Positions 33,986 to 40,566 of a stretch of DNA of 64,000 nucleotides are shown here, one piece after another. The position numbers and the translations under genes were made by a program. Numbering within the stretch: position 1 is the stretch's first letter; every line of letters begins with the position of its first letter. The notes under the pieces are model-generated. The model saw only the letters and a program-made list of their open reading frames with translations, was not told the DNA's origin and did not search any database. The stretch lies in the sequence record OL615011; one strand, 5' to 3'. The stretch comes from Shigella phage vB_SboS_Gloob.

Positions 33986-35048
33986 GGTCCATCTGCTCCA
34001 GCATGTTCGCAGGCATAACAGTACCGTTAGAAACACCGAACATCTTCTTCACGTCATCGGCGAAGTCGACATTCTCCAGAAGCGGATACCAGAAATCATC
34101 ATCCATCTGACGCTTCTGATATTTCTTTTCCTTCTCAGGATCGAAGCCGCCCTTGGCTGTACGCACATACCAGCCGGAAGACGGCATATCAACGTAACCC
34201 AGAGCACGAGCGATCTCAAGCAGGCCGCTCCAGCGGTCAATGCCACCGTCGTACAGCACCGTCACAGGGAGCTTGGCTTTCTCTTTGACATGGCGACCTT
34301 TCATGATGCCGATATTGAAGTTCCAGCCCAACAGATCTTTGTCTTCCTTCACCTGAGAACGGGTGATGAACCAGATCAGGTTGGACGACAGGAAGCCCTG
34401 CTTGCCGCCTTTGATGTTAGGCTCGGCATACTGGTTGCCGATCTCGTCATAGTAGGAGTTGATCCACACCAGAACGAGTTCTTTGCTGTTGATTTCGGGA
34501 GTAATGACACGCCAGAAGCTGTTGAGAGCACGGGCGCGGGTCATATCCTGTGTATCTTTACCAGCGATGGCGTCTTCAACTTCTTTGGTAGACGGCAACT
34601 GGCTGATTGAGTCGATGAACACGATGACCTTGTCACCCTTCTTGACTTCCTGAAGGATTTGCAACAGGCGGATCTTGGTCTGCTCAACGTTGTCAATCGG
34701 CACGTACAGGACGCGATCCATGTCAATACCCATAGACGTCCAGTAATCGGCGTTGGCACCCTTTTCCGAGTCCGCAAAGACGCAAATAGCATCAGGGAAC
34801 TTGTCCATGTACGCCTTGACATCTACCAGACCGAACATCGTTTTGAAGGTACGGGAATCACCCACCATCATCTTGATACCGGAGATCAAGCCGCCGTCAA
34901 TACGCCCAGACCAGGCGATGTCAATCAGGGGAATACCAGTAGAACAGATGATAGACGGTTCCAGCGCGTCGGATTGGGACAGCACTGAAGCCTGGTCGTC
35001 ATGTTTCTTGGCAACCTTCAGCATGCGGTCCATTAATGAACTGGCCAT
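33963..35048 (-). CDS. uvsX: UvsX recombinase (RecA-like)
   Basis: strong resemblance to T4 UvsX as recalled (GGLISG, KSNFGL-like, VVFIDSISQL, TRAKAL-like, GGIDRWSGLL). Confidence 0.85.
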   Translation of the reverse strand: MASSLMDRMLKVAKKHDDQASVLSQSDALEPSIICSTGIPLIDIAWSGRIDGGLISGIKMMVGDSRTFKTMFGLVDVKAYMDKFPDAICVFADSEKGANADYWTSMGIDMDRVLYVPIDNVEQTKIRLLQILQEVKKGDKVIVFIDSISQLPSTKEVEDAIAGKDTQDMTRARALNSFWRVITPEINSKELVLVWINSYYDEIGNQYAEPNIKGGKQGFLSSNLIWFITRSQVKEDKDLLGWNFNIGIMKGRHVKEKAKLPVTVLYDGGIDRWSGLLEIARALGYVDMPSSGWYVRTAKGGFDPEKEKKYQKRQMDDDFWYPLLENVDFADDVKKMFGVSNGTVMPANMLEQMDHVINTSE

Positions 35049-35575
35049 TTCACTTCCTCTTTATTGTTGATCGTCGTTAATAATTCTACACCCATAACCT
35101 TCTGGGACAAAATGTTAACCGCCTCTTGGATGCTCTTCAGAGACATCATCTCAACAGGCGACGGTGCGTCATTATGTCGGTCGGTTAGGTACATATTGCG
35201 CAGATTGTTGTAGTTCGTGCGGTTGATGCACGCAGCGTTCAGCGCAATATTCAGGATATACATCATCTGTTCAATGGTTACATCCTTTGGCATGGCGTGG
35301 ATGTAATAGATCGAACCTTCGAAGTAGACGTCCACCAGTTCCTCTGGTATCTCGACGCCACCGCTGGCATACTCTTCGATCATCCTGAACAGAGACTCTG
35401 GTTGCTCGCTGGCGATCTTATGCGTGACAGTCGCCGAAAGACCATCACCCAGTTTAACAGGCCTGGTGTATTCAGTGATGAATACATTATGACCGCCGCC
35501 GATGATGTGCTCGGCGAAATTAGCGGATGCGTTCGCCGCGTTGTCTGCATGATATGAAACGACGACTGTAAACAT
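35033..35575 (-). CDS. hypothetical protein occupying the position held by beta-glucosyltransferase in T4
   Basis: first ATG (MFTVVV) of longer track ORF; lies between UvsX and gp56-like gene. Confidence 0.5.
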   Translation of the reverse strand: MFTVVVSYHADNAANASANFAEHIIGGGHNVFITEYTRPVKLGDGLSATVTHKIASEQPESLFRMIEEYASGGVEIPEELVDVYFEGSIYYIHAMPKDVTIEQMMYILNIALNAACINRTNYNNLRNMYLTDRHNDAPSPVEMMSLKSIQEAVNILSQKVMGVELLTTINNKEEVKWPVH

Positions 35576-36120
35576 TAGAACTCCAGGGTCAGAGGGGTTT
35601 CTGTGGACTTGTCGTAATCCGCGCCGCCAGCAGCACGCAGACGATTGCGATCGTTCTTGCGCTTGTGTGCCAGCATGTAGGTTTCGGCATCCAGTCCCAA
35701 ATAACCACAAGCATACGCAAGGAAAGCAGCCAGCACATTGCGCTCTGGATGAGACATAAAATGCGTGAACAGATTTGTCACATGGAGGAAATCTGGCTTT
35801 CTCTGAATAGGTTGGTCAGACACATAACCCGTCATGTCGTACATATCATGCGGCTCCGCTTCTTTTTGTATAACGGCACACAGCATGAAGTGGACGACAT
35901 CGACCAATTCGTAAACCGCATTGACTTGGTGCCATTGCTGGTCTTTACCATAGATCTTCCAGCTGGTCGAAACTTCGTCAAGGAACTCTGCCCACTCGCG
36001 GTAGATAGAGTTTACCACCGCGACTTCGGTCCAATGCTTCTGCCACTCTTCCCCAAAGTAGGCCACGTTGGTGGCCTTTTGGAGTTCGAGCAGGCTTTTG
36101 ATATGCCCTGCTGTGATCAT
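35575..36120 (-). CDS. gp56-like dNTP pyrophosphatase (dCTPase/dUTPase type, MazG-like)
   Basis: YELVDVVHFMLCAV resembles T4 gp56 region FELVDIFHFVLNMF as recalled. Confidence 0.6.
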   Translation of the reverse strand: MITAGHIKSLLELQKATNVAYFGEEWQKHWTEVAVVNSIYREWAEFLDEVSTSWKIYGKDQQWHQVNAVYELVDVVHFMLCAVIQKEAEPHDMYDMTGYVSDQPIQRKPDFLHVTNLFTHFMSHPERNVLAAFLAYACGYLGLDAETYMLAHKRKNDRNRLRAAGGADYDKSTETPLTLEF

Positions 36121-36686
36121 TTACGTTCTCCGTAGAATTTAACGAACGGTGCCCAACCATCAAATGGATTGAGGAATTCGTAGTCCACTTCCATCTTATC
36201 AATGAAAGCCTCTATATCGTCCTCTATGATACCAGCGCGGTCGGCCTTTGAAATGCGGGTGATAGGACATTTCGTACTCAGCGCCCACTCATATTCCTGA
36301 GGGGTGCGCAGATCGCTCACGATATAATGTACATGAGGGTTCTGCTCCACCAGAGGAAGCTGGAAGCGCTTGAAGAATGCCAGGAACAGATCAGGCTGTA
36401 CGTAACGCAAGCCCGTATCGCTGCCGAGATGAAGCCAGATCTGCCGTGGGGTTAAGCCCTTGGGGTTATCAGGGTGGATGTAAGGAACGTCCTTCACGGC
36501 ATCCTCTACCTCCGCTGGCAGCCACGGGTAAATGTAGTTGGCGACCCGGCGCAGTTCATCTGAGAACGAAAGGCGCTGGATATCCATATCACCCTGTAGA
36601 TGGTGATAGCTGATGAGGGACTCCAAACAGAAGTCCTTACCGGAGCGCTTGCGCCCCGTAAAGAATTCAAGGTTCGGGTACATCAT
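36117..36686 (-). CDS. gp1-like deoxynucleoside monophosphate kinase
   Basis: N-terminal P-loop FTGRKRSGKD matches T4 gp1 (LSGVKRSGKD) as recalled. Confidence 0.7.
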   Translation of the reverse strand: MMYPNLEFFTGRKRSGKDFCLESLISYHHLQGDMDIQRLSFSDELRRVANYIYPWLPAEVEDAVKDVPYIHPDNPKGLTPRQIWLHLGSDTGLRYVQPDLFLAFFKRFQLPLVEQNPHVHYIVSDLRTPQEYEWALSTKCPITRISKADRAGIIEDDIEAFIDKMEVDYEFLNPFDGWAPFVKFYGERK

Positions 36687-39332: not shown

Positions 39333-39508
39333 AATAAAAACCCTTTCGTTATTAAGACCGTCTTCGCGGCATATTGCTGTTCTGACCGTGTAGTGAGAAC
39401 ATAATATACTGCATTTTTCATAAATGTAAACCACTTTTTATTGAAAAGAAGTTTACACCTTAGTGTTAAACCGCGCCCAGCCAAGCGGAGCGCGAACTTG
39501 CGTGAATA

Positions 39509-39802
39509 TTAACTTTCAACGTCAATATTGAAAACCATTTCCGGTGGCCAACAAGTTGTTAGCTCGACTTTTGCGAACCGTGGTTGGCAGTACGCATCAA
39601 CTGACTCATCAAACAGACAGTGTTCTACATTTGCGACCATCAGATCATCATCCAGCACTTCAACAGAATGGACAATGATCTTGTGGTCATACGTCAGGCA
39701 ACCGTCTAAATGCATGTTGTCAGCGCGGAGGTGCTGCATGATGAAATACTCTATGATCGACTCAAGGACAGTCGTCAGCTTCAGATAACGTTTCATACAC
39801 AC
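39509..39802 (-). CDS. hypothetical protein
   Basis: 97-aa ORF. Confidence 0.45.
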   Translation of the reverse strand: MCMKRYLKLTTVLESIIEYFIMQHLRADNMHLDGCLTYDHKIIVHSVEVLDDDLMVANVEHCLFDESVDAYCQPRFAKVELTTCWPPEMVFNIDVES

Positions 39803-39816
39803 CTCACACAGTGGGG

Positions 39817-40566
39817 TTATTTGGACAGGTAGAAGTTTGGAACTTCAGGGAAATGCTCTGGTAGACATTCCCCCAGAATATCCTGCTTCACCTTCCCTTC
39901 GATATCTTCGCGGATCCGACGAATTACGTCTTCCTGTTGTTCTATCGCCATCACTTCTTCCATGGCGGAGTACAAGTTGTCTAGAATGACACCTACGTAG
40001 TTGTGGATGGCACGACAGGAGTTCTGGTCATACTCCATATCTGGATGAATCGCCAGGTCGACCTGATCACGCCCTACCAGCAGATGTCCAGACACCAGAT
40101 TTATCGGGTATTGGAATACTTCACCAGATTTGACAGCAACTCCGTCGGCTTGCTTCAGCAGGAATTCGGTTTCAGAGAAGCGTTCAAGTAGTTCCGGTGG
40201 GAATACCATATCGAGATTCTGACGCTTGCGACTAAAGAAGTACAGACAATGCGCCAGTTTCAGGCATGCATCGGTGGCCATCTTCATATGTGCTTTAGCG
40301 TGTTCATAACCAGCGATCACATCACGGACATAATCGTACAGGTCGGCATGACCAAAACGGATGTCCTCTTCGAAGCGGATTGCCGCCTCGCTGTCTGATT
40401 TCAAACCCAGCACGTCAAAGATGTTGTGTTCACGGACGGATCTGCCTTTGCGATCAAAGCCTAGAACACAACCGACTTCGAATCCACTCTTTTCAAAATT
40501 TGGGAGTTTCATATCAAGGCGAGCTGGGGTGAATTCCAACCCGAACATACGATAAATTTGTGACAT
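39817..40566 (-). CDS. hypothetical protein
   Basis: 249-aa ORF upstream of nucleotide-modification module. Confidence 0.55.
   Translation of the reverse strand: MSQIYRMFGLEFTPARLDMKLPNFEKSGFEVGCVLGFDRKGRSVREHNIFDVLGLKSDSEAAIRFEEDIRFGHADLYDYVRDVIAGYEHAKAHMKMATDACLKLAHCLYFFSRKRQNLDMVFPPELLERFSETEFLLKQADGVAVKSGEVFQYPINLVSGHLLVGRDQVDLAIHPDMEYDQNSCRAIHNYVGVILDNLYSAMEEVMAIEQQEDVIRRIREDIEGKVKQDILGECLPEHFPEVPNFYLSK

Follow-up and report, generated by a model that had tools for sequence, protein, structure and literature searches.

The DNA analysed here (the window) is a stretch of 64,000 nucleotides (nt) from Shigella phage vB_SboS_Gloob, sequence record OL615011. Its subject is a 5.5-kb region (35033–40566) containing a run of overlapping genes with predicted roles in thymidine hypermodification, together with their neighbours. 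The window belongs to an Agtrevirus (Ackermannviridae), with 97–98% nucleotide identity to Ag3, P46FS4 and SKML-39. It begins at rIIA, and its gene order runs parallel to that of the first 64 kb of Salmonella phage ViI. Its G+C content is about 50% throughout (0.505), and no tRNA genes were found in the 64 kb. Over the 5.5-kb region, nucleotide identity reaches 96–98% with Ag3, P46FS4, SKML-39, SP-9-14, SW16-7 and MK-13, all of them Agtrevirus and named as phages of Shigella (Ag3 and MK-13) or Salmonella (P46FS4, SKML-39, SP-9-14 and SW16-7), and about 190 further Ackermannviridae genomes are 80–90% identical over the same region. A preliminary description of this DNA had read it as a nucleotide module for the replacement or hypermodification of thymidine.

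All the open reading frames (ORFs) named in that description are present on the minus strand at the positions given in Table 1, with start codons that agree with those of the annotated ViI and Ag3 orthologues. The E-values of the family matches on which the assignments rest are far outside the range of chance. On this strand, the genes follow one another in the order kinase, thymidylate synthase (TS) homologue, deoxynucleoside monophosphate (dNMP) kinase, pyrophosphatase, ACT-like protein and uvsX. The module had been placed downstream of uvsX; in the direction of transcription, it lies upstream of it. Successive genes overlap by 1, 4, 4, 1 and 16 nt through TAATG or ATGA junctions, the ACT-like gene having 1 nt (TAATG) in common with the pyrophosphatase gene at the latter's end and 16 nt with the start of uvsX, which continues into a small ORF and then a gp41-type helicase. 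The layout is conserved family-wide. The same block with the same overlaps is found in those carriers of the ACT-like gene that have diverged most, and the block also occurs in Vibrio phage 1.255.O, the ACT slot excepted.

Because the genes overlap one another and uvsX, the five genes upstream of uvsX are expressed together, and their promoter is probably an extended -10 element within the hairpin that precedes the kinase. This hairpin, a G+C-rich stem of 13 bp followed by a T-run, lies 3' of the stop codon of the gene for a 288-residue protein. It contains TGCTATAAT, a perfect extended -10 located about 30 nt upstream of the kinase ATG. The pattern TGNTATAAT has only two occurrences in the window, and an 'extended' -10 is also annotated at the corresponding place in the Ag3 record. 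Terminator-like and promoter-like elements overlap here, and the interval probably serves both to separate two transcription units and to start transcription of the block from kinase to uvsX.

Table 1. Positions of the features discussed, numbered from the first letter of the window.
Feature	Position	Strand	Basis or description
dCMP deaminase, predicted dUMP supplier	18036..18542	+	PF00383, E 5.5e-18; 65% identical to ViI Vi01_030
ACT-like domain protein, 180 residues	35033..35575	-	PF24021 ACT_phage, full-length, E 2e-80; phrog_3839
All-alpha NTP pyrophosphatase, T4 gp56 family, predicted dUTPase	35575..36120	-	PF08761 dUTPase_2; phrog_173
dNMP kinase, T4 gp1 family, predicted 5-hmdUMP kinase	36117..36686	-	phrog_139, E 8e-47
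TS-superfamily enzyme, predicted dUMP 5-hydroxymethyltransferase	36683..37729	-	PF00303; 348 residues
Kinase of 5-hmdU in DNA (5-HMUDK), first gene of the overlapped block	37729..38391	-	PF18748; ViI gp67 orthologue
Hairpin and T-run between the 288-residue protein gene and the kinase	38410..38438	-	Terminator-like scan match
288-residue neighbour of the kinase	38466..39332	-	Conserved N-terminal domain, acidic linker, C-terminal alpha/beta domain

The kinase that opens the block carries the Walker A motif GSNGSGKST at residues 37–45 and matches its Pfam profile over positions 1–195 of 196, with a score of 357 bits where 27 is the cut-off (E 3e-107). It is 87.7% identical over 220/220 residues to ViI gp67 (YP_004327432), with which it is syntenic and shares its neighbours, including the TS homologue, and it is 100% identical to Ag3 orf00067. 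ViI gp67 phosphorylates 5-hydroxymethyl-deoxyuridine (5-hmdU) in DNA (PMC8989533). By orthology with gp67, the product is assigned as a 5-hmdU DNA kinase, which bears out the activity suggested earlier for this additional P-loop kinase.

The same kinase goes under the name 'terminase small subunit' in phrog_800, as it does in many RefSeq records of Ackermannviridae (ViI, Ag3, CBA120, P46FS4 and others). The true small terminase adjoins the large terminase (Vi01_162c in ViI), and the label on the kinase is a propagated misannotation.

The TS homologue matches PF00303 with an E-value of 4e-16 (59 bits, cut-off 24.3) over profile positions 54–219. The match is partial, covering residues 67–235 of 348, and therefore around 100 C-terminal residues lie outside the TS fold; this extension, already pointed out in the preliminary description, is lineage-specific. 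In ThyA numbering, Cys146, Glu58, Arg166, Ser167, Asp169, Asn177, His207 and Tyr209 are kept, while Trp80, Trp83, His147, Arg127 and Asp205 are replaced. Asn occupies the ThyA-177 position, where T4 gp42 has Asp, in both the PDB alignment (6auj) and a MAFFT alignment; the latter used an E. coli ThyA reference on which the PDB alignment does not depend. The protein had been described as retaining the catalytic Cys and the uracil-specifying Asn without being a canonical ThyA, and both parts of that description hold: the two residues are present, and all seven NCBIfam ThyA equivalog models stay far below their cut-offs (the best at 58.8 bits against 327).

The comparison of ThyA with hydroxymethylase families that had been proposed as a check came out on the side of the hydroxymethylases, the best PDB relative being the hydroxymethylase MilA (E 6e-17), with ThyA structures at 6e-10 or weaker. 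Among phage proteins, the nearest relatives belong to phages of the 5-hmdU type, namely 1.255.O and the M6-like and SPO1-like phages (1e-24 to 1e-36), whereas the T4-type Td reaches 1e-6. The ViI counterpart is 78% identical, and in a published tree the TS proteins of CBA120, ViI and AG3 grouped with dUMP hydroxymethylases (Kutter 2011, PMC3184105). Many GenBank and RefSeq records call the protein 'thymidylate synthase'. From its residues and relatives, we predict that it is of the dUMP-hydroxymethylase type, specific for uracil and not for cytosine. Replacement of T by 5-hmdU through a uracil-specific hydroxymethylase, as first suggested from the gene content, agrees with the published work on the ViI and CBA120 orthologues.

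The two remaining enzymes of the block had been likened to gp1 and gp56 of T4. Single-sequence PDB searches gave nothing or a marginal match, so a family-level comparison was used. At that level the likeness stands. The dNMP kinase belongs to the family that also holds T4 gp1 (phrog_139, E 2e-65 for gp1), and the two share the unusual P-loop motif GxKRSGKD (GRKRSGKD in the window, GVKRSGKD in T4 gp1), at which they align; the window protein is 91.5% identical to ViI Vi01_059c 'dnk'. The pyrophosphatase falls into the same two families as T4 gp56, PF08761 (45 bits, cut-off 22.9; 25 bits for gp56) and phrog_173 (E 3e-41; 6e-39 for gp56), and its marginal PDB match in the single-sequence search is the dimeric dUTPase 1w2y. 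At the level of individual sequences, the likeness does not hold: a direct BLASTP comparison of the pyrophosphatase with T4 gp56 gave E 0.03, and comparison in pairs with gp42, gp56 and gp1 of T4 shows marginal similarity or none, which makes the resemblance to this trio one of families only. By analogy, the pyrophosphatase is probably also a dTTPase.

The pyrophosphatase gene is itself an inter-genus mosaic. The products of the flanking genes are 99–100% identical to those of Ag3, while the pyrophosphatase shows 62.5% identity to its Ag3 counterpart against 84% to that of ViI. Over its full length, the gene has 94% nucleotide identity with those of the Kuttervirus phages CBA120 and pertopsoe. 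Its central 193 nt (35686–35878) could not be aligned with Ag3 and form a Kuttervirus-type segment, with a G+C content of 0.466, lower than the 0.505 of the window. Within the collection examined, this mosaic allele was found at ≥90% identity in no Agtrevirus record.

Experimental work on ViI-type phages gives these genes a context. CBA120 does not incorporate 3H-thymidine, and the authors of that study drew attention to the dNMP kinase next door and, with T4 gp56 as their model, suggested that the dUTPase acts on dTTP as well (Kutter 2011, PMC3184105). The hypermodified base 5-(2-aminoethoxy)methyl-deoxyuridine (5-NeOmdU) replaces about 40% of T in ViI, CBA120, CBA6 and 1.255.O; it was reconstituted in vitro from ViI gp67, gp160, gp226, gp243 and gp247, and the list of 5-HMUDK phages in which it is expected includes Ag3 and SKML-39 (Lee 2018, PMC5889632). 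Phosphorylation of 5-hmdU in DNA is carried out by both gp67 and gp243; gp247 transfers L-serine, with O-serinyl-T as the product, and gp226 is a pyridoxal phosphate (PLP) decarboxylase that yields 5-NeOmdU (Lee 2021, PMC8989533). In the scheme for phages with 5-hydroxymethyluracil (hmU), dCMP deaminase supplies dUMP (PMC8989533). The gene set is conserved across the family, including Agtrevirus SW16-7 and Limestonevirus PP35 (PMC11721090, PMC6336734, PMC10458263), and 5-NeOmdU has been confirmed by liquid chromatography–mass spectrometry in a third genus, Taipeivirus (phiHS2, about 16%).

Searches of the window with ViI gp160, gp226, gp243 and gp247 (tblastn) returned no match. In Ag3, the orthologues of these four lie at about 89, 141, 150 and 152 kb and are 84–92% identical to the ViI proteins, the gp247-type transferase at 88% and the gp226-type decarboxylase at 92%.

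Two side observations concern the arrangement of pathway genes in other phages. In the deep-branching relative Vibrio phage 1.255.O (MG592621.1, 3262–9765), a gp160-type gene (PF18723) stands just two genes upstream of the kinase, in the order gp160-type gene, 230-residue protein, homologue of the 288-residue protein, kinase, TS homologue, dNMP kinase and dUTPase; this cluster is more compact than that of the enteric phages, because gp160 there is about 50 kb from the kinase. In ViI, Vi01_194 (orf00239; L004, 48522–49304), two positions upstream of the second kinase gp243, matches the NT5C-type 5'-deoxynucleotidases (PF06941, E 6e-8). It is a candidate dTMPase of the kind that hmU-type phages use to deplete thymidine nucleotides, and Ag3 has a syntenic orf00239.

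Considering these data together, it is highly probable that the region comprises, for an Agtrevirus, the pre-replicative half of the ViI-type pathway of thymidine hypermodification together with the first step after replication. The pathway would begin with the dCMP deaminase and the dUTPase_2 pyrophosphatase, which would supply dUMP, the latter probably destroying dTTP as well. The TS-family enzyme, using its catalytic Cys and methylene-tetrahydrofolate, would then place a one-carbon unit on C5 of dUMP to give 5-hydroxymethyl-dUMP and not dTMP, a step suggested by clade and orthology and supported in vivo for CBA120. The gp1-family dNMP kinase would convert this product to 5-hmdUDP, host nucleoside diphosphate kinase would form the triphosphate and the phage polymerase would insert 5-hmdU in place of T. 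Within DNA, 5-HMUDK would phosphorylate the hydroxymethyl group of 5-hmdU with the gamma-phosphate of ATP, giving 5-PmdU, as indicated by the biochemistry of ViI gp67. Beyond the window, a gp247-type amino-acid:DNA transferase would add L-serine through its side-chain oxygen, and a gp226-type PLP decarboxylase would remove CO2 to leave 5-NeOmdU at a fraction of T positions; both steps have been shown for ViI and are presumed here. The remaining 5-hmdU would be converted to T.

Several points weigh against this assignment. Sequence alone cannot tell hydroxymethylase from methylase activity, and we found no report in the literature of a direct assay of a ViI-type TS homologue, pyrophosphatase or dNMP kinase. 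The dNMP kinase has no match to Pfam DNMK (PF21448) at E ≤0.01 and none in the PDB by single-sequence phmmer search, and the dTTPase activity of the pyrophosphatase is a conjecture taken from Kutter 2011. The gp247 and gp226 orthologues of the source phage are inferred from Ag3, since the rest of its genome lies outside the window. Moreover, no chemical DNA analysis for any Agtrevirus or Limestonevirus was found in the literature, and the PP35 paper calls the base structure there 'yet to be determined' (PMC6336734).

This last gap in direct chemistry, which extends to the Aglimvirinae, leaves room for a module that works as described up to 5-PmdU but leads in Agtrevirus to a different end base, through another amino-acid donor or another extent of modification. 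The extent does vary by genus, from about 40% in ViI to about 16% in Taipeivirus phiHS2, and the hypermodification gene sets of other phages recombine combinatorially. Nevertheless, the close identity of the Ag3 transferase and decarboxylase to ViI enzymes with known products, and the presence of the same 301-Da nucleoside in Vibrio phage 1.255.O, a far more distant relative, render a different end base improbable.

The preliminary description had also proposed the two proteins encoded just upstream of the kinase, of 288 residues and of 249 residues (39817–40566), for the group-transfer steps on phosphorylated 5-hmdU. Both are rejected as group-transfer enzymes because they do not match the profiles matched by the ViI enzymes: AADT (PF18724), HMUDK_hel (aGPT-Pplase1, PF18723) and the PLP families recognize ViI gp247, gp160 and gp226, respectively, and none of them recognizes either neighbour, so that the profile search suggested as a check was negative. 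Neither protein matched any Pfam or NCBIfam model, PHROGs gave no functional assignment for either, and no enzyme-like or transferase fold was seen, the helix-hairpin-helix glycosylase-like fold of the transferase families included; the genes of the real enzymes lie outside the window. The position of the two genes directly upstream of the kinase speaks for such a role, as does the adjacency of the 288-residue protein gene in 1.255.O, where a gp160-type gene is also near. On the other side, five other ViI proteins suffice for 5-NeOmdU synthesis in vitro, the terminator-like hairpin stands between the two genes and the kinase block, both families are missing from other 5-HMUDK phage lineages, and the 249-residue protein is about 28–30% identical between genera, compared with 78–92% for the pathway enzymes. 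A group-transfer role for these neighbours is thus very improbable.

Least credible of all, and close to excluded, is a block that serves as a generic nucleotide-salvage cluster, unrelated to base replacement, with an ordinary thymidylate synthase as its TS-family protein: the annotation in many records and the retained Cys and Asn fit such a reading, but the ThyA equivalog models failed by a wide margin, Trp80, Trp83 and His147 are lost, a hydroxymethylase and not a ThyA is the nearer relative of the protein in the PDB, the adjoining 5-hmdU DNA kinase, of a validated family, would lack a substrate unless 5-hmdU were made, and CBA120 excludes labelled thymidine.

As to what the two neighbours are, the 288-residue protein has a hypervariable, indel-rich acidic linker between its two conserved domains, and its C-terminal domain shows a weak likeness to the type III secretion chaperone, YbjN and PsiB folds. 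It is 56% identical to its ViI counterpart, and its gene adjoins the kinase throughout the lineage, Vibrio phage 1.255.O included; whether the protein belongs to the module is uncertain. The gene for the 249-residue protein adjoins that of the gp2 DNA-end protector. This protein has a confident predicted fold, seen only in Ackermannviridae, and constitutes a lineage-specific orphan that evolves much faster than its neighbours; its low identity between Agtrevirus and Kuttervirus (about 28–30%) would, speculatively, fit a host-interaction or anti-defence role. Comparisons by hhalign of its family with the gp160-type protein and with its positional neighbour in 1.255.O were negative. AlphaFold models of the two neighbours have pLDDT values of 79.5 and 69.1 (given here as a pair, not by protein). 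Their ViI orthologues carry no particle-associated label in a record that draws on virion proteomics, which may hint that both are non-structural.

The gene between the pyrophosphatase and uvsX had been described as encoding an unassigned protein in the position that T4 gives to beta-glucosyltransferase (beta-gt). The position is correct, the slot directly upstream of uvsX being the beta-gt slot of T4 if the homing endonuclease segA is ignored. The protein does have a family, the ACT_phage family of Table 1, and shows no similarity to beta-gt. The gene is present in 269 Ackermannviridae records, always between pyrophosphatase and uvsX, the most distant members included, and its product is 56% identical to that of ViI. 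Profile searches detected no PDB relative. As a candidate T4 beta-gt, the protein was discarded, with no BLASTP match, different families (phrog_3839 and PF24021 against phrog_7922) and different lengths (180 against 351 residues). No homologue was detected in the same slot of 1.255.O, which holds a 196-residue protein with no detectable relationship to it; since that phage makes 5-NeOmdU, the ACT-like protein is not universally required.

There is a small chance that either the 288-residue or the ACT-like protein is an unrecognized accessory factor of the pathway. If so, it might govern the choice and the proportion of 5-hmdU positions that undergo hypermodification or, alternatively, might act in the conversion of the remaining 5-hmdU to thymine.

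Elsewhere in the window, a plus-strand gene (15400–16086) encodes a 228-residue protein that shares 60% identity with the 'QueC-like' Vi01_023 of ViI and whose N-terminus alone weakly matches the PP-loop ATPases, QueC among them (PF06508, E 2e-6).

Compared with known systems, the window is closest to the Kuttervirus phages ViI and CBA120, with the same genes, order and overlaps and with enzymes that are 78–92% identical; the ViI accessory genes gp160, gp226, gp243 and gp247 have the same set of counterparts in Ag3, the closest relative of the window. It differs from CBA120 in genus and in G+C content (about 50% against 44.5%), from Kuttervirus in general by a dUTPase gene that combines Agtrevirus and Kuttervirus alleles, and from ViI in the ACT-like (56%), 288-residue (56%) and 249-residue (30%) proteins, which diverge far more than the enzymes.

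The 5-hydroxymethylcytosine system of T4 follows the same logic: a canonical dNTP is excluded, a dNMP is hydroxymethylated and passed to a dedicated dNMP kinase, and the base is decorated in DNA. T4 and the window have in common the families of the dCTPase/dUTPase gp56 (PF08761, phrog_173) and the dNMP kinase gp1 (phrog_139), the superfamily of the dCMP hydroxymethylase gp42 (PF00303) and a TS-family gene a few genes upstream of uvsX-40-41. They differ in the base, cytosine in T4 (Asp in gp42) and uracil in the window (Asn), and in the arrangement of genes, since those of gp42, gp56 and gp1 are scattered in T4 while their counterparts are contiguous here. T4 decorates by glucosylation, whereas the pathway of the window would proceed by phosphorylation, amino-acid transfer and decarboxylation. 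Neither gp42, gp56 nor beta-gt of T4 shows significant direct pairwise similarity to the window proteins.

Among phages with hmU or hypermodified DNA, the Bacillus hmU phages SPO1 and SP8 and the hypermodifying phages PhiW-14, SP10, M6 and PaMx11 encode dUMP hydroxymethylases that belong to the same TS clade (32–34% identity), and the group from SPO1 to PaMx11 has 5-HMUDK homologues 25–34% identical to that of the window, with 5-PmdU as a shared intermediate. Unlike the ViI-type pathway, that of SPO1 ends at 5-hmdU, and PhiW-14, SP10, M6 and PaMx11 attach putrescine, glutamate or glycine, with tailoring by radical-SAM, FAD or acetyltransferase enzymes. The group lacks the ACT-like, 288-residue and 249-residue proteins. 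MilA, the CMP 5-hydroxymethylase of mildiomycin synthesis (PDB 5b6d, 5jnh), resembles the TS homologue as a TS-fold hydroxymethylase longer than ThyA; it differs in acting on CMP, in having Asp at the Asn177 equivalent and in belonging to bacterial secondary metabolism.

The core finding is already known: the ViI-type block was published by Kutter 2011 and Lee 2018/2021, with Ag3 by name, the block in the window is a near-exact copy of it, and nothing in the core finding is new. Its value here is confirmatory, in that a reading of sequence alone recovered a pathway established experimentally between 2011 and 2021. Such hypermodification pathways are a source of DNA-modifying enzymes for biotechnology. 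For the phages themselves, thymidine hypermodification shields their DNA from many restriction enzymes and possibly from other defences that target nucleic acids.

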